The translations under genes were made by a program, and so were the position numbers. The notes under the pieces are model-generated. The model did no database searches and was not told the origin of the DNA. It saw nothing but the letters and a program-made list of their open reading frames with translations. Source: a virus (lineage: Duplodnaviria > Heunggongvirae > Uroviricota > Caudoviricetes). Taken from it: a DNA stretch of 5,574 nucleotides. Shown here one piece after another: positions 1-5,574 of this stretch. The stretch is taken from IMG/VR virus record IMGVR_UViG_2617270990_000009; one strand, given 5' to 3'. Within the stretch, counting starts at the first letter, position 1, and each line of letters starts with the position of its first letter.

Positions 1-325
1 ATTTTTTCCAGAGGCGGTCGAACTCCGCCTTCGCAAAATAAGCGGAAGCCTGGCGAAGGATATCGTTACTGCGGCGCAGTTCACGATTTTCACGTTCCAG
101 CTCTTTCAGACGCTGACGTTCAGCGCTGGTGAGCCCACCATCACCGCCCCCGGTATCCCGCTCATGCTGGCGAACCCAGACACGCAGAGTCTCCGGCGTA
201 CAGCCAATCTTTGGGGCAATGGAACAAATTGCCGCCCACTGTGAGTCATATTCATCCTGACTTTCCAGAACCATACGAATCGCCCGCTGACGGACTTCGG
301 GGGAAAAACGAGTATTTTTAGTCAT
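1..325 (-). CDS. IS3-family transposase OrfA (HTH DNA-binding subunit), cut at window edge just at its stop codon
   Basis: ATG at 323..325 on the minus strand; translation identical to the 108-aa OrfA of the second copy ([22 protein letters not shown]...). RBS AGGTAAACAGG upstream. Confidence 0.85.
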
Positions 326-379
326 CCTGTTTACCTCTTTCTCAGGGAGTTTAGTCTCCAGGATTTCCGGGGCGGTTCA
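1..379 (-). mobile_element. IS3-family insertion sequence (IS629-like), partial copy A; left-end terminus at 379, remainder lies beyond window start
   Basis: Reverse complement of 1..379 is base-for-base identical to 4284..4662 of the second copy as far as I can read (position x pairs with 4663-x). Terminus reads TGAACCGCCCCGG, which I recall as the IS629/IS1203 end. Confidence 0.9.
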
Positions 380-791
380 CTCCGGCATCTTTTTTATTGG
401 TTTGGGGGAGTGGATTAATTACCCTCTCAAGGTGAGATTTATTGGTCCTGGAGTTTGGACTCGTGGATATAATCGTTCTTCGTGCGCACTCGGTATCATC
501 TTCGACATACTTGGTTGTTTCCTGATTGTTACAGGAGTCGTCAAGTTCTTCTGATGTAAAACCGCAAATGGGGCACGTAACGGGAATTTTGAAAAGCGTT
601 TCTCCGGGTTCCAGAACAAAATTTTCTGCGGTCTGATTTTGCTTCTCATATTTGTGCTCCGCGTCATTGTGAGAGCACATTCTTATTCTGAGTGCCTGTT
701 TAAACTCACTGAAGCTGAGAGCTTCTTCGCCTTCGGCAAGGCCTTCGAAGTATTCTTCGTAAGCCTTTTCCATGATTGTGTCGAAATCCAT
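351..791 (-). CDS. ydfB/ydfC-like protein of the dicB-operon region (Cys-rich, CPICG...C...C); 3' end chimeric, last ~9 codons and stop lie inside the IS terminus, so native C-terminus is probably lost
   Basis: Minus-strand ORF; likely start is [17 protein letters not shown] at 789..791, one base after the ydfA-like stop, with AGGTGA RBS. The six-frame ORF extends to 833 but that overlaps ydfA. The reading frame crosses the IS boundary at 379/380. From memory it resembles K-12 YdfB plus YdfC, which I cannot verify. Confidence 0.5.
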
Positions 792-792
792 A

Positions 793-948
793 TCACTCAC
801 CTGAGTTTCTTTCCAGCCAGCGACGGGCACCATTTTCGGTTTTAAACGTTTTGCTTTTGGTATACGTCATCGCGGTGAACGTGCCGTCCTGATTGGGGAA
901 CACGCCACATACCAGAGATTCGCTGTTGCCAAGATCGATAGTATCCAT
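793..948 (-). CDS. ydfA: YdfA-like small protein (51 aa, DUF1391-type), first gene of the dicB-type operon
   Basis: ATG at 946..948 (minus) preceded by GAGGT RBS; translation MDTIDLGNSESLVCGVFPNQDGTFTAMTYTKSKTFKTENGARRWLERNSGE. Sits downstream of dicA on the same strand, as in K-12 Qin. Confidence 0.6.
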   Translation of the reverse strand: MDTIDLGNSESLVCGVFPNQDGTFTAMTYTKSKTFKTENGARRWLERNSGE

Positions 949-1025
949 GCTGACCTCATTTCCCCTTAACGCCGGGGTGGCGGAACTGTTTGCTGAGAAC
1001 ACCGTGCGGTGTGTTGATGTAAACA

Positions 1026-1054
1026 AGATTAGTCATAACTAACATATTGGTCAA
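1026..1054 (-). promoter_or_regulatory. Putative sigma70 promoter for the ydfA operon (dicBp-like): -35 TTGACC, 17-bp spacer, -10 TAATCT (minus-strand reading)
   Basis: Reverse complement of 1049..1054 is TTGACC and of 1026..1031 is TAATCT, with a 17-nt spacer; an operator-like site overlaps the spacer and -10. Confidence 0.35.
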
Positions 1055-1080
1055 GTGATTTTGTATGTTATGGCTAACAT
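1029..1080. promoter_or_regulatory. Two operator-like imperfect palindromes with CTAACA half-sites (TTAGTCATAACTAACA at 1029..1044; TGTTATGGCTAACA at 1066..1079), candidate DicA/DicC binding sites
   Basis: They share the TGTTAG/CTAACA half-site with the palindrome in the dicA-dicC intergenic region. Confidence 0.4.
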
Positions 1081-1114
1081 AATTGATATAATAAAAGATA
1101 ACTCATTGATGATG

Positions 1115-1522
1115 TTATCTTTTATTTGTCCGCTGACGGGCTTTTAGTAATTCTTCAAAGAGTTTATTGAAATTTTTTACTCGAGCTCGCATTTCGGCGA
1201 GCTGGGTATCCTGTTCTGATTCTGGCAGTGCATTAAACAGCTCAAGGAGCTCTAGTTCTTTGGGGGCTAAGGCAACCGGCTTCTCAACAGGTGGTGTTGG
1301 TTGCTTGTCTTCATCGCCAAATAGAATCCATGTTGGTGAGCATTGCAATACTTTGCTGAGGGCAAAAAGGTTCTTCCCTGTAGGTTCACTATCATCCCGT
1401 TCCCATTGTGATACAGACACATGGGAGATTTTCAGGGCTTTAGCAAGAGACCTTTGGGTGTGTTTGAGGTTTTTCCGACGATACCTAATGCGTTCGCCGA
1501 TGGTTAAATTTTTTGTATCCAT
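1115..1522 (-). CDS. dicA: DicA, P22 C2-like HTH_XRE repressor of the cell-division-inhibition operon (prophage immunity repressor)
   Basis: 135-aa ORF MDTKNLTIGERIRYRRKNLKHTQRSLAKALKISHVSVSQWERDDSEPTGKNLFALSKVLQCSPTWILFGDE..., recognised as near-identical to E. coli K-12 DicA from memory. Divergent from a Cro-like gene. Confidence 0.9.
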   Translation of the reverse strand: MDTKNLTIGERIRYRRKNLKHTQRSLAKALKISHVSVSQWERDDSEPTGKNLFALSKVLQCSPTWILFGDEDKQPTPPVEKPVALAPKELELLELFNALPESEQDTQLAEMRARVKNFNKLFEELLKARQRTNKR

Positions 1523-1524
1523 AG

Positions 1525-1538
1525 TTAGCTAATGCTAA
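1525..1538. promoter_or_regulatory. Short inverted repeat TTAGC-TAAT-GCTAA next to the dicA start; possible operator half-site pair
   Basis: Seen directly in sequence; lies 3 bp upstream of the dicA ATG on the minus strand. Confidence 0.25.
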
Positions 1539-1544
1539 ATCGTA

Positions 1545-1573
1545 TTGACTATGTTTTTGTTAACATCTATTTT
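1545..1573 (+). promoter_or_regulatory. Putative dicC promoter: -35 TTGACT (1545..1550), 17-bp spacer, -10 TATTTT (1568..1573)
   Basis: Consensus-like hexamers at the correct spacing, about 30 nt upstream of the dicC ATG. Confidence 0.4.
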
Positions 1574-1590
1574 GTTAGCCATGACTAACA
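1573..1590. promoter_or_regulatory. 18-bp near-perfect palindrome TGTTAGCCATGACTAACA, candidate DicA/DicC operator overlapping the -10 and start region of the dicC promoter
   Basis: Reverse complement is TGTTAGTCATGGCTAACA, so 16 of 18 positions are symmetric. Related sites are at 1029..1044 and 1066..1079. Confidence 0.45.
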
Positions 1591-1605
1591 TCTAAGGTGT
1601 TTTAA

Positions 1606-1836
1606 ATGCTTAAAACTGACGCTCTTTTGTATTTCGGTTCAAAAACAAAACTTGCACAAGCAGCAGGTATTCGTTTGGCTTCGCTTTATAGCTGGAAAGG
1701 GGATTTAGTTCCCGAAGGTCGCGCGATGCGTCTACAGGAGGCATCTGGCGGGGAGCTTCAGTATGATCCCAAAGTTTATGACGAATATCGTAAGACGAAG
1801 CGGGCGGGGCGGTTGAACAATGAAAATCACTCCTGA
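1606..1836 (+). CDS. dicC: DicC, Cro-like small DNA-binding regulator
   Basis: 76-aa ORF MLKTDALLYFGSKTKLAQAAGIRLASLYSWKGDLVPEGRAMRLQEASGGELQYDPKVYDEYRKTKRAGRLNNENHS matching K-12 DicC from memory; AAGGTG RBS 6 nt upstream; divergent from dicA. Confidence 0.88.
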   Translation: MLKTDALLYFGSKTKLAQAAGIRLASLYSWKGDLVPEGRAMRLQEASGGELQYDPKVYDEYRKTKRAGRLNNENHS

Positions 1837-2341
1837 ACAGGCTCGTGAGGCTCTGGATGCCTGGATATGTCGACCAGGAATGACACAGGAGCAGGCGACG
1901 ATATTAATCACTGAAGCATTCTGGGCTTTGAAAGAGCGCCCGAACATCGATGTTCAGCGTGTCACATATGAAGGTGGCGCGGTTGATCAGCGAGCGCTTA
2001 GCGTTAATCGAGTGAAGATATTTGAACGCTGGAAGGCTATCGACACCAGGGATAAGCGTGAAAAGTTCACAGCGCTAGTGCCTGCAATTATGGAGGCTAT
2101 CCGGATTAGTGATTTCAGGTTGTATCGTGAAATTAGTGACGGAAAGAGCATTACGTACATGATCGCTGGGTTAAATAAAGAATATGGCGATGTGGTGGAG
2201 TCCGGACTGCTTTTTGCAGATCCTGCCGTTGTAGATCGTGAAACTGACGAACTTATAGAAAAAGCAATTGCTTTCAAGCTTGCGTATCGACAGCAATACC
2301 AACAAAAAGCTGGATGGAATTATGAGCCTTCTTTTTGCTGA
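1820..2341 (+). CDS. YdaT-like protein (proposed functional analogue of lambda CII in Rac/CP-933-type prophages)
   Basis: 173-aa ORF whose ATG overlaps the dicC stop by 17 nt. The internal motif KREKFTALVPAIMEAI resembles what I recall of Rac YdaT; position immediately after the cro-like gene fits. Family assignment is from memory. Confidence 0.55.
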   Translation: MKITPEQAREALDAWICRPGMTQEQATILITEAFWALKERPNIDVQRVTYEGGAVDQRALSVNRVKIFERWKAIDTRDKREKFTALVPAIMEAIRISDFRLYREISDGKSITYMIAGLNKEYGDVVESGLLFADPAVVDRETDELIEKAIAFKLAYRQQYQQKAGWNYEPSFC

Positions 2342-3287
2342 ACGCCCACTGGTTATAAACACACAGCTTGCGATGAAGATTGGCTTAAACGAAGCCATTG
2401 TGTTGCAGCAACTGCATTACTGGTTGAGAGATACCAATTCCGGCATGGAATGTGATGGTGTTCGCTGGATTTACAACACAACGGAACAATGGCTGGCGCA
2501 GTTCCCGTTCTGGTCAGAGTCAACGTTAAAGCGCGCGTTTGCAAGTCTGAAAACGCTGGGGCTTTTGCGTTGCGAAAAGCTCAATAAATCAAAGCGCGAC
2601 ATGACCAATTTCTACACGATCAACTATGGGAGCGATCTTTTAGATGGTGGCAAATTGAGCGAATCCATCAGTTCAAAATGCGTCGCTCCATCAGGTCAAA
2701 ATGACATGATGGAAGAGGTCAAAATGAAACGCTCCATTGGTTCAAAACGACCCAATGTCATCGGGTCAAAATGGCCCGATGATCCTACAGAGAATACAAC
2801 AGAGATTACTACAGAGAATAAAAACACTTTTCGTCCGGAAGCTTTGCAACCGGACCAGCAGACGGCTGAACAGGATTTTTTAATCCGGCACCCTGACGCA
2901 GTTGTGTTTAGTGCGAAAAAACGGCAGTGGGGTAGCAGGGAGGATTTGGCGTGTGCGCAGTGGATCTGGGGGCGGATCGTGGGTCTCTACGAACAGGCCG
3001 CCAGTGATGATGGCGAGATCATGCGACCAAAAGAGCCTAACTGGACTGCCTGGGCCAATGACGTGCGCACAATGCGGATGCTGGATGGCAGAAGCCACAG
3101 ACAAATTTGCGAAATGTTTGGTCGGGTACAGCGAGATCCATTCTGGGTCAAAAACATCATGAGTCCGTCAAAGCTTCGCGAAAAATGGGATGAGCTGGTT
3201 ATTCGCCTGGGGCGTTCGCCAATAAAGCGTTGTGTGAATCATATTTCTGAACCGGATACCGAAATTCCGCCTGGTTTCAGGGGATAA
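2322..3287 (+). CDS. Phage replication initiator, lambda O-like (N-terminal winged-helix iteron-binding domain, linker containing the origin repeats, C-terminal DnaT-like domain)
   Basis: Long ORF; preferred start ATG 2322 (MSLLFAERPLVINTQLAMKIGLNEAIVLQQLHYWL...) overlapping the upstream gene by 20 nt. The six-frame ORF begins at 2268. Iteron array lies inside the coding sequence, as in lambda O. Confidence 0.7.
   Translation: MSLLFAERPLVINTQLAMKIGLNEAIVLQQLHYWLRDTNSGMECDGVRWIYNTTEQWLAQFPFWSESTLKRAFASLKTLGLLRCEKLNKSKRDMTNFYTINYGSDLLDGGKLSESISSKCVAPSGQNDMMEEVKMKRSIGSKRPNVIGSKWPDDPTENTTEITTENKNTFRPEALQPDQQTAEQDFLIRHPDAVVFSAKKRQWGSREDLACAQWIWGRIVGLYEQAASDDGEIMRPKEPNWTAWANDVRTMRMLDGRSHRQICEMFGRVQRDPFWVKNIMSPSKLREKWDELVIRLGRSPIKRCVNHISEPDTEIPPGFRG
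2664..2780. repeat. Origin-like iteron array: five direct repeats with core G(G/T)TCAAAA(T/C)G at ~23-bp spacing
   Basis: TCAAAA cores at 2673, 2696, 2719, 2742 and 2767; units 1 and 2 also share the TCCATCAG prefix. Located in the linker-coding part of the O-like gene. Confidence 0.6.
2787..2822. repeat. Three in-frame 12-bp tandem repeats ACAGAGA(A/T)TA.. (AT-rich), encoding TENT-TEIT-TENK; candidate DNA-unwinding element next to the iterons
   Basis: ACAGAGAATACA / ACAGAGATTACT / ACAGAGAATAAA read directly from the sequence, immediately 3' of the iteron array. Confidence 0.7.
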
Positions 3288-3327
3288 GTGTTGATTTCAG
3301 GTCATGAGGTAATTTTAAGGGGGACTT

Positions 3328-3756
3328 GTGGCAAAAGTTTTTACACAAGAAGAGCGGGAAAAAATTAAAGGGCAGGTGGTGGAACTCGTGCGCCAGAGCG
3401 GTCGTGAGACGTTACGGCAACTGGAAGCCAAGACAGGTGCGACAAGATATCTGATGAGCGCTCTTGCCAGAGAGCTGGTTGCCAGTGGCGATGTATACAA
3501 CTCTGGTTACGGGTTATTCCCGTCTGAACAGGCCCGTAAGGACTGGCAAAACGCCCGCAAAAAACTCTCGAGGGCAAAGGTGAAGAAACCCGCTGCGGTT
3601 GATCCAGACCTTATCTGGTCATTAGCTGACGGAGAAATACGTCGTTACGACAGACATCATAATATAATTTGTAGTGAGTGCCGTAAAAGCGAAGTTATGC
3701 AGCGTATATTGTCTTTTTATCAGGGAAATGTTCGATATTTATTGAAGTATCAATAA
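3328..3756 (+). CDS. Hypothetical 142-aa protein (possible winged-helix N-terminus; HH..C..C cluster near C-terminus); function unknown
   Basis: GTG start at 3328 preceded by a strong SD (TAAGGGGGA); ORF uninterrupted. I do not recognise a family. Confidence 0.55.
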   Translation: MAKVFTQEEREKIKGQVVELVRQSGRETLRQLEAKTGATRYLMSALARELVASGDVYNSGYGLFPSEQARKDWQNARKKLSRAKVKKPAAVDPDLIWSLADGEIRRYDRHHNIICSECRKSEVMQRILSFYQGNVRYLLKYQ

Positions 3757-3851
3757 CCTATTTAAACATTCCTTAAACTCAGAGTAGACTGGGTTAACAA
3801 TCTGTTTCAATTGCAAATTGACAATCTATAGCCAGCGCGACGGGAGTGTTC

Positions 3852-4283
3852 ATGTTTAGTCAGGTTGACATCGGTAGTTTCGGTAGTTTTACGGACCTCA
3901 GTTGGAAAAATAGCCTTAAGGATGCAGGTAACAATGTCCAGAATTTCAAGAGGCTTAACATCCTCTACGGACGGAACTACTCTGGTAAAACTACACTCTC
4001 ACGAATTTTCCGCGCTTTGGAAACGGGGCGCATTCCACATAACTACGTGGACCCAAATTTTACTATTCGTGGTGACAAAGGTGATGTGACACAGGTAGGT
4101 CTTGCTGGTCATGGCTACGATGTTCGCGTCTACAACCGGGATTTTGTGAGCGATAACCTAAACTTCTTGGTCAATCAGACCGACGGCGAGATCAAGACGT
4201 TTGCTATCGTTGGTGAAAAGAATAAAGAAATCGAAGATGCCATTACCGCAATTCAAACTAGGTTAGGCAGTGTTGAATCGAAG
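3852..4283 (+). pseudogene. N-terminal fragment (144 codons) of a P-loop ATPase (Walker A GRNYSGKTT; resembles AAA_13 / RloC-PrrC-like or related defence ATPases), truncated by the IS insertion
   Basis: ATG 3852 with GGGAG RBS 5 nt upstream (GTG 3846 also in frame). Motifs NILYGRNYSGKTTLSRIF and VRVYNRDFVSDNLNFL. Reading frame terminates on TGA at 4284..4286, which is the first three bases of the IS terminus. Proteins of this type are normally several hundred aa. Confidence 0.65.
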
Positions 4284-4337
4284 TGAACCGCCCCGGAAAT
4301 CCTGGAGACTAAACTCCCTGAGAAAGAGGTAAACAGG

Positions 4338-4664
4338 ATGACTAAAAATACTCGTTTTTCCCCCGAAGTCCGTCAGCGGGCGATTCGTATGGTTCTGGAA
4401 AGTCAGGATGAATATGACTCACAGTGGGCGGCAATTTGTTCCATTGCCCCAAAGATTGGCTGTACGCCGGAGACTCTGCGTGTCTGGGTTCGCCAGCATG
4501 AGCGGGATACCGGGGGCGGTGATGGTGGGCTCACCAGCGCTGAACGTCAGCGTCTGAAAGAGCTGGAACGTGAAAATCGTGAACTGCGCCGCAGTAACGA
4601 TATCCTTCGCCAGGCTTCCGCTTATTTTGCGAAGGCGGAGTTCGACCGCCTCTGGAAAAAATGA
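4338..4664 (+). CDS. IS3-family transposase OrfA (HTH subunit)
   Basis: 108-aa [33 protein letters not shown]... with leucine-zipper-like C-terminus; GAGG RBS upstream. Confidence 0.9.
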
Positions 4665-5551
4665 TGCCACTGCTGGATAAGCTGCGTGAGCAGTACGGGG
4701 TCGGACCGGTATGCAGCGAACTGCATATTGCCCCGTCAACGTATTACCATTGTCAGCAACAGCGACATCATCCGGATAAACGCAGTGCCCGTGCGCAGCA
4801 CGACGACTGGCTGAAGAGAGAGATACAGCGCGTATACGATGAAAATCATCAGGTGTACGGTGTGCGTAAAGTCTGGCGTCAGTTGTTACGGGAAGGAATC
4901 AGGGTGGCCAGATGTACAGTGGCACGTCTCATGGCGGTTATGGGACTTGCCGGTGTTCTCCGGGGTAAAAAGGTCCGTACGACCATCAGCCGGAAAGCCG
5001 TTGCCGCAGGCGACCGCGTAAACCGTCAGTTCGTGGCAGAACGACCTGACCAGCTGTGGGTGGCTGATTTTACTTACGTCAGCACATGGCAGGGCTTCGT
5101 CTATGTGGCGTTTATCATTGATGTGTTTGCCGGATACATCGTGGGGTGGCGGGTCTCATCGTCTATGGAAACGACATTCGTGCTGGATGCGCTGGAGCAG
5201 GCGTTGTGGGCCCGTCGTCCGTCTGGCACCATCCATCACAGCGATAAAGGCTCTCAGTATGTGTCACTGGCCTATACGGAGCGACTAAAAGAAGCCGGAT
5301 TACTGGCATCAACAGGGAGTACAGGCGACTCGTATGACAACGCGATGGCTGAGAGCATCAATGGTCTTTACAAAGCGGAGGTAATACACCGTAAGAGCTG
5401 GAAAAACCGTGCAGAAGTGGAACTGGCCACACTAACGTGGGTGGACTGGTATAACAATCGACGATTGCTGGGAAGGCTGGGCCATACTCCTCCGGCAGAA
5501 GCAGAAAAAGCTTATTATGCTTCCATCGGAAACGATGATCTGGCAGCCTGA
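4661..5551 (+). CDS. IS3-family transposase OrfB (DDE catalytic domain), expressed as an OrfAB fusion by -1 frameshifting
   Basis: 296-aa ORF in -1 frame relative to orfA, overlapping it by 4 nt (ATGA); DDE-type motifs ([24 protein letters not shown]). Confidence 0.9.
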
Positions 5552-5574
5552 GTTCACAGATAAAACACTCTCCA

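Follow-up and report, generated by a model that had tools for sequence, protein, structure and literature searches.

What raises the question at this locus is a pair of genes behind the replication initiator of a prophage, one encoding a small protein of 142 amino acids and the other the beginning of an ATPase. The original prediction for the 5,574-base stretch of DNA analysed here (the window) was that these two genes are a candidate for an undescribed accessory system, acquired laterally as a moron and located where a helicase loader would be expected, in which the small protein could regulate or assist the ATPase. Our analysis leads to a different explanation, which we consider very probable: the region combines two independent and already described elements, namely a Ren-like backbone gene and a cassette of the RloC family that has been broken by an insertion sequence (IS). 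Both genes belong to families that are already known, and the region is not a new system. What had been taken for a new gene pair would be a backbone gene beside a defence gene that is already known and is broken here.

The window covers the part of a Qin/Kim-type lambdoid prophage that is responsible for immunity and replication. Positions 380-4283 match Escherichia coli T309.Ta3 with 99.97% identity, and the same genes are annotated there in RefSeq. The open reading frame (ORF) list and these RefSeq genes agree that an ORF of 142 codons is followed by an ATPase fragment, as originally described. For the O-like gene, the mechanically called ORF begins at position 2268, and we use the RefSeq-equivalent start at 2322, which corresponds to the coding sequence at 7035-8000 in the related E. 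coli locus L001. The features of the window, from left to right, are as follows.

1-379, minus strand: left IS1203/IS629-like copy (IS3 family), cut by the start of the window
Before the dicA-like repressor: DUF1391 (ydfA-like) gene
1115-1522, minus strand: dicA-like repressor
1606-1836: dicC/cro-like gene
1820-2341: YdaT/cII-like gene
2322-3287, plus strand: O-like replication initiator (PHROG 391, 'replication initiation O-like', E 5e-91)
3328-3756, plus strand: orf142, 142 amino acids, DUF977 / LygF / Ren-like
3748-3851, plus strand: left edge and 104-nucleotide leader of the cassette, placed by homology breakpoints
3852-4283, plus strand: ATPase fragment, codons 1-144 of a 798-residue gene
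4284-5574, plus strand: right IS1203/IS629-like copy, continuing to the end of the window
4338-4664: orfA of the right IS
4661-5551: orfB of the right IS
4619-4735: ALIL pseudoknot (Rfam RF01497, 121.5 bits) at the orfA/orfB overlap

The small protein had been regarded as unrecognised. However, it is a full-length match to the Pfam family DUF977 (PF06163; E 1.8e-29, with 102.9 bits where the cut-off is 22.1) and, likewise at full length, to PHROG 142, which is named 'Ren-like exclusion protein' (E 1.5e-45). Lambda Ren also matches PHROG 142 over its full length (E 1.6e-41), and the two proteins have a C-terminal motif in common, which can be written as ECRxSxxMQR(I/V)L or as ECRxSxxMxRVL (the aligned pair is NIICSECRKSEVMQRILSFY versus NLVFKECRQSAAMKRVLAVY). 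The AF2 model of the orf142 product is confident for approximately residues 10-80, with pLDDT values above 90 at residues 11-70, and this part is predicted to be a winged helix. Foldseek places it among wHTH folds of the MarR, GntR and IclR types, and a PDB sequence search with orf142 returned nothing usable. A winged-helix N-domain is predicted for lambda Ren as well, and both genes are positioned directly after replication genes. The two proteins differ in length (96 amino acids for Ren and 142 for orf142), in the presence of a low-confidence linker of about 45 residues in orf142, and in their relationship to the Pfam DUF977 threshold, with Ren falling below it and orf142 above.

The family is widespread. 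It is encoded by sequenced phages, where it is called LygF, DUF977 or Ren-like, and DUF977 is present in the viable phages mEp460, Tritos, Rac-SA53 and the Stx phages. Of 5426 complete E. coli genomes, 4034 contain DUF977 DNA, and only 16-17 of these also carry the ATPase. In the window, in L001, in the prophage of strain C012 (locus L004), in Tritos, mEp460, Rac-SA53 and the Stx phages, and in lambda itself, the replication module ends with the DUF977 or ren gene. On the basis of its profile matches and genomic context, we assign orf142 as a Ren-like (DUF977/LygF) prophage backbone gene rather than cargo. The gene ren is named for protection of the phage against Rex exclusion. A preprint describes two-hybrid interactions of the Rex proteins with O and Ren. 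Our literature searches on DUF977 and LygF found no functional account of this family.

The original prediction was correct in that the O-like gene and orf142 are not separated by any gene resembling P or DnaC, as judged by the ORF list, Pfam and PHROGs. The further suggestion that the two genes occupy the position of an expected loader does not hold, as mEp460 and Tritos, like the window, have an O-like gene followed directly by DUF977. In Rac-SA53 and the Stx phages, the corresponding order is YdaU, YdaV (DnaC-like), YdaW and then LygF, and in lambda it is O, P and then ren. These gene orders demonstrate that DUF977 and Ren coexist with helicase loaders. It could be proposed that orf142 itself replaces the missing loader, given that it sits right behind the initiator in a module without P or DnaC. 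However, neither orf142 nor the ATPase gives a match to a loader family in Pfam, PHROGs or NCBIfam, and orf142 is a member of the Ren family whose confidently modelled part is a small winged helix. This proposal was rejected because members of the family are found together with DnaC or P in other phages, and we regard it as highly improbable. From the layouts of the modules across phage types, we conclude that the absent P/DnaC gene is normal for an mEp460-type replication module, that the insertion described below is not its cause, and that orf142 is not a stand-in for a loader.

Two other features of the O-like gene were observed. Positions 2666-2781 carry five direct repeats of 23 nucleotides with a spacing of 23-24 nucleotides and the core GGTCAAAATG, and these are followed at 2785-2823 by three overlapping A-rich repeats of 15 nucleotides. 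This putative arrangement looks like an iteron-type origin within the initiator gene, as in lambda. In addition, the C-terminal tail of the O-like protein (…ISEPDTEIPPGFRG), which is encoded by the last 21 codons (3225-3287), matches the extreme C-terminus of DnaT, covering positions 159-179 of the 179 in NCBIfam NF002770 (primosomal protein DnaT) with an E value of 0.004. The same tail resembles the C-termini in several phage replication PHROGs, and the O-like protein is named 'Primosomal protein I' in phage records. The DnaT-like tail may offer a loader-less module a route to recruit the helicase-loading machinery of the host.

The ATPase gene has a different history from orf142, as can be seen from the homology breakpoints between them. 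Matches to the prophage backbone (L004, Tritos and mEp460, all of which lack the ATPase) stop at positions 3740-3748 and resume approximately 2.65 kb later. Matches to the ATPase gene from an E. coli tRNA-Phe island and from Enterobacter, Yersinia and Pluralibacter begin at positions 3747-3748 and end 100-165 nucleotides past the stop codon. The cassette defined in this way is about 2.6 kb long and contains a single gene. Its left edge lies 8 nucleotides inside the end of orf142, so that the final two codons of orf142 and its stop codon come from the cassette. In L001, the intact cassette with its leader spans positions 8461-11,125. The switch in homology on the right-hand side falls at approximately 11,062-11,125 in L001. 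At the right edge of the cassette, which is outside the window, a hairpin-forming sequence, GTCCGCTTCTCGCTAAATAAAAGCGGAC, is located at approximately 11,112-11,139 of L001 where backbone homology resumes. Tritos and mEp460 have a related sequence at this position, as do Pluralibacter and Erwinia downstream of the gene. The hairpin may act as a terminator or mark a joint at which recombination recurs.

The ATPase gene is present in 19 of the 5426 complete E. coli genomes. In 17 of these it follows DUF977 in a prophage of the type seen in the window, and in the other two it resides in a tRNA-Phe island whose copies have 89% nucleotide identity and no DUF977. At the nucleotide level, the cassette shares 87-94% identity with its counterparts in Enterobacter, Yersinia, Pluralibacter and Erwinia. 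Another 46 loci were collected from other species of Gamma-, Beta- and Deltaproteobacteria and from an acidobacterial metagenome-assembled genome, mostly with 62-95% protein identity. In none of these 46 loci does a DUF977 gene lie 4 kb or less from the ATPase, and no neighbouring gene family recurs in more than five of them. These sequence comparisons indicate that the ATPase gene is accessory and was acquired laterally as a single-gene cassette.

A two-gene accessory system, in which the small protein regulates or assists the ATPase, would be consistent with the fact that both genes are on the same strand with a separation of 95 nucleotides and that they are neighbours in 17 E. coli genomes. 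Moreover, nothing resembling a strong promoter or terminator was identified between them; a scan of positions 3200-4300 for promoters and terminators yielded no plus-strand site, and the counts were no higher than those from shuffled sequences. However, DUF977 occurs without the ATPase in approximately 4000 genomes, the ATPase occurs without DUF977 in the E. coli island and in all 46 loci from other species, and unrelated cargo is found behind DUF977 in other prophages. The breakpoint at 3748 also separates the two genes. We give the two-gene system very little chance of being correct. Given the cassette boundaries and the independent distributions of the two genes, their adjacency is a product of cargo insertion behind a backbone gene.

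The proposal of an acquired moron therefore survives for the ATPase, on the strength of its rarity in E. coli and the sharp edges of its cassette, and fails with regard to the GC content that had been offered as evidence for it. The estimate of about 40% GC for the start of the ATPase gene was accurate (the first 100 nucleotides are exactly 40.0%), but the contrast with the O-like gene is small and not distinctive. The ATPase fragment has 44.4% GC and the intact gene 43.2%, compared to 48.7% for the O-like gene, 46.6% for orf142, 43.9% for the dicA-like repressor and 45.5% for the whole related locus. Likewise, the GC3 of the ATPase is 0.47-0.48, within the range of its neighbours (0.39-0.53). 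Because these values overlap with those of backbone genes, GC content and codon bias were rejected as signs of acquisition. The informative signals are instead the presence/absence polymorphism and the cassette boundaries. Taken together, orf142 is conserved without the ATPase, the GC content resembles that of the flanks, and the pair is not co-conserved; all three are outcomes that the original prediction had itself named as refuting it.

The ATPase ORF can begin with GTG at 3846 or ATG at 3852 and ends at 4286; the RefSeq start in T309.Ta3 is the ATG that matches 3852. The encoded fragment matches Pfam AAA_13 (E 9e-29) and the PADLOC entry PDC-S06 (E 5e-60). It keeps only the N-lobe with the Walker A motif, and the zinc hook, signature motif, Walker B motif and nuclease domain are gone. 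The last base of prophage DNA is 4283, and the IS begins with TGA at 4284-4286. The truncated ORF ends after 144 codons because its stop codon is supplied by this terminal TGA of the IS. The disruption noted in the original prediction is real, and the ATPase gene in the window is a pseudogene that retains 144 of 798 amino acids.

The nature of the gene becomes apparent from its intact allele. The 798-residue protein matches Pfam AAA_13 along its entire length (E 3e-152) and the PADLOC PDC-S06 model PDLC04887 over residues 1-794 of 798 (E = 0). It carries a Walker A motif (GRNYSGKT, residues 40-47, G40 to T47), a zinc-hook motif (C293-A-F-C296), a signature motif (LSEGE, 542-546), a Walker B motif (IIYIDD, 570-575) followed by the D-loop SSLD, and a switch histidine, H619, within STHN (617-620). 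Near the C-terminus there is a triad of the form R700-x3-E704-x43-S747-H748, which overlaps a HEPN motif, R741-x6-H748. All of these motifs are invariant in 38 homologues with 75-100% identity. The AF2 model of the protein has a mean pLDDT of 64.6, and the ATPase head and the all-helical C-domain are poorly modelled. The model includes long helices at residues 147-186, 302-339, 350-386, 401-447 and 450-491, which flank the CxxC loop and have block-mean pLDDT values mostly from the high 80s to the mid 90s. The model thus predicts a coiled coil of approximately 350 residues that includes the CxxC motif. The best PDB fold matches from Foldseek are weak and are to Rad50 and SMC heads with coiled coils. 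The AF2 C-domain gave no Foldseek match, and PDB sequence searches with the intact ATPase, both as a single sequence and as a 38-sequence profile, returned no usable relative.

This architecture corresponds to that of RloC, which is represented by proteins of Geobacillus kaustophilus and Acinetobacter baylyi (COG4694; AAA_13). RloC is defined by PrrC-like ABC motifs with an insert consisting of a Rad50-like coiled coil and a CX2C zinc hook (PMC2610378), together with a C-terminal Arg-X3-Glu-X36-52-His triad in which a Ser often precedes the His (PMC2610378, PMC3710099). In a survey of HEPN domains, the nuclease domain of RloC was placed in the HEPN superfamily (Rx4-6H), and prophage-borne relatives were found to exist (PMC3710099). 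The key residues of the G. kaustophilus protein (GkaRloC) are K44, C291, D572, R692, E696 and H737, and mutation of each triad residue causes the loss of its nuclease activity (PMC2610378). The intact allele is in the same length class as RloC and resembles it in its Rad50-like ABC ATPase motifs, in a coiled-coil insert bearing a CX2C zinc hook, and in the Arg-X3-Glu-X43-(Ser)His triad with its HEPN Rx6H motif. Moreover, its residues are collinear with those of GkaRloC with offsets of 2-11, and like RloC its gene stands alone with no obligatory linkage to restriction-modification (R-M) genes. It differs in being located in a slot of a lambdoid prophage and, for the copy in the window, in consisting only of codons 1-144. 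In RefSeq, the intact protein (WP_032280029.1) is labelled only as 'AAA family ATPase', and JGI names homologues with 76-82% identity 'wobble nucleotide-excising tRNase'. The proposed orthology rests on the motif definition, the residue positions and the JGI name. From this comparison of motifs and positions, we conclude that the intact ATPase is probably an ABC-HEPN protein of the RloC family.

The fit to RloC and to PDC-S06 argues against an undescribed system. PDC-S06 is a computational candidate label in PADLOC whose 'S' indicates a single-gene system, as is the intact ATPase, and we found no reports of it being tested in the literature searched. The fact that PADLOC lists the protein only as a candidate, and that its C-domain is poorly modelled, leaves some room for a defence protein of the AAA_13/PDC-S06 type that is not an anticodon nuclease, such as a Rad50/SbcC-like DNA sensor with another effector or target. 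Similarly, the PADLOC model for PrrC matches the intact protein only at residues 498-629, the C-lobe of the ATPase (E 4.6e-15). However, homologues show no variation in either the R-x3-E-x43-SH triad or the Rx6H HEPN motif, the triad lies at the positions at which each mutation in GkaRloC abolishes nuclease activity, and close homologues bear the JGI name of an RloC tRNase. A non-nuclease protein is therefore unlikely.

PrrC, the tRNA-Lys anticodon nuclease of E. coli, is also similar in having an ABC ATPase N-domain and a C-terminal HEPN anticodon-nuclease triad. PrrC is without the coiled-coil/zinc-hook insert, and it is always encoded within a type I R-M locus (PMC2610378). In contrast, the intact ATPase has a coiled coil of about 350 residues with a CxxC motif, and its loci are without R-M neighbours: no hsd genes were found near the ATPase in the prophage or island contexts, and no neighbour of any kind recurs among 48 loci. 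The lack of R-M linkage and the presence of the coiled coil led us to reject membership in the PrrC family. Recognising the RloC type behind the labels 'AAA family ATPase' and 'PDC-S06' provides a testable mechanism.

In this explanation, orf142 closes the replication operon, and a slot for cargo begins right behind it, which received the single-gene RloC-family cassette. By analogy with GkaRloC and the A. baylyi protein (AbaRloC), the HEPN anticodon nuclease of the intact protein would be kept inactive by its zinc-hooked coiled coil together with its DNA-dependent, Rad50-like ATPase. DNA ends and ATP hydrolysis, arising from phage attack or DNA breakage, would then release the nuclease, which would excise the wobble nucleotide of a tRNA. 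We infer this wobble-nucleotide-excising activity from the two characterised proteins. Cleavage of tRNA would stop translation and might thereby cause abortive infection that acts against superinfecting phages. In the window, insertion of the IS1203/IS629-like element after codon 144 has left the gene dead, with a stub that contains the Walker A motif.

The IS that interrupts the ATPase gene is one of two copies that bracket the segment. The right copy has matches to the Pfam families HTH_Tnp_1, rve and HTH_21, and for both copies the matching E. coli DNA is annotated as an IS1203-family IS3-like element. The ALIL pseudoknot at the overlap of orfA and orfB is an expected programmed-frameshift element in IS3-family transposases. 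Window positions 1-381 are the reverse complement of 4282-4662 with 100% identity over 381 nucleotides. The two copies are thus inverted relative to each other, with their orfA-proximal ends facing inward and the 3.9-kb immunity-replication segment between them. This arrangement could be due either to two insertions or to an IS-mediated inversion or deletion; the outer ends of both copies fall beyond the window. The exact junctions between the ATPase gene and the IS, and between the IS and the prophage, are absent from the 5426 complete E. coli genomes. At the other end of the segment, an ORF of 160 codons on the minus strand (351-833) matches positions 1-153 of the 205-position profile of PHROG 35040 and enters the left IS. 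Because its last residues are encoded by the IS, the left copy truncates a second prophage gene.

The slot that received the cassette is variable and extends from directly after orf142 as far as hokD/rem. In mEp460, it holds the defence gene PD-T7-1 (4337-5686 of locus L054; E 4e-157), and in Tritos it holds the FRG-domain candidate PDC-S15 (5661-6995 of locus L006; E 1e-98). Among approximately 18 prophage copies of the RloC-like gene, at least four independent knock-outs are found, including the one in the window. One tentative reading is that the ren-like gene and hokD flank a defined defence hotspot in Qin/mEp460-type prophages, and that the RloC cassette is an active but costly abortive-infection gene that is knocked out repeatedly. 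We lean slightly away from this reading, though it is plausible and would be a modest extension of existing knowledge. If it is true, the intact allele from E. coli would allow the exclusion of phages by RloC to be shown directly, for the first time, and in a native host. The ren-like/hokD boundary is a helpful landmark when Qin/mEp460-type prophages are searched for defence cargo.

The other disrupted copies of the RloC-like gene carry different lesions. In ECCHD184 (1501-5210 of locus L057), the gene is interrupted by an IS3-family insertion after approximately codon 328, and in STEC1589/1590 (1501-3500 of locus L058) it has an internal deletion of about 400 bp. The A23 copy (3001-4691 of locus L059) has an IS1-linked deletion involving the first 706 nucleotides of the gene. 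The slot in strain C012 (6622-10429 of L004) contains four unannotated genes, one of which is weakly HepT-like, as well as a feature annotated as 'tRNA-OTHER'. In Tritos, a pair of RmrT/RmrA-like genes is located just past hokD (8119-9875 of L006).
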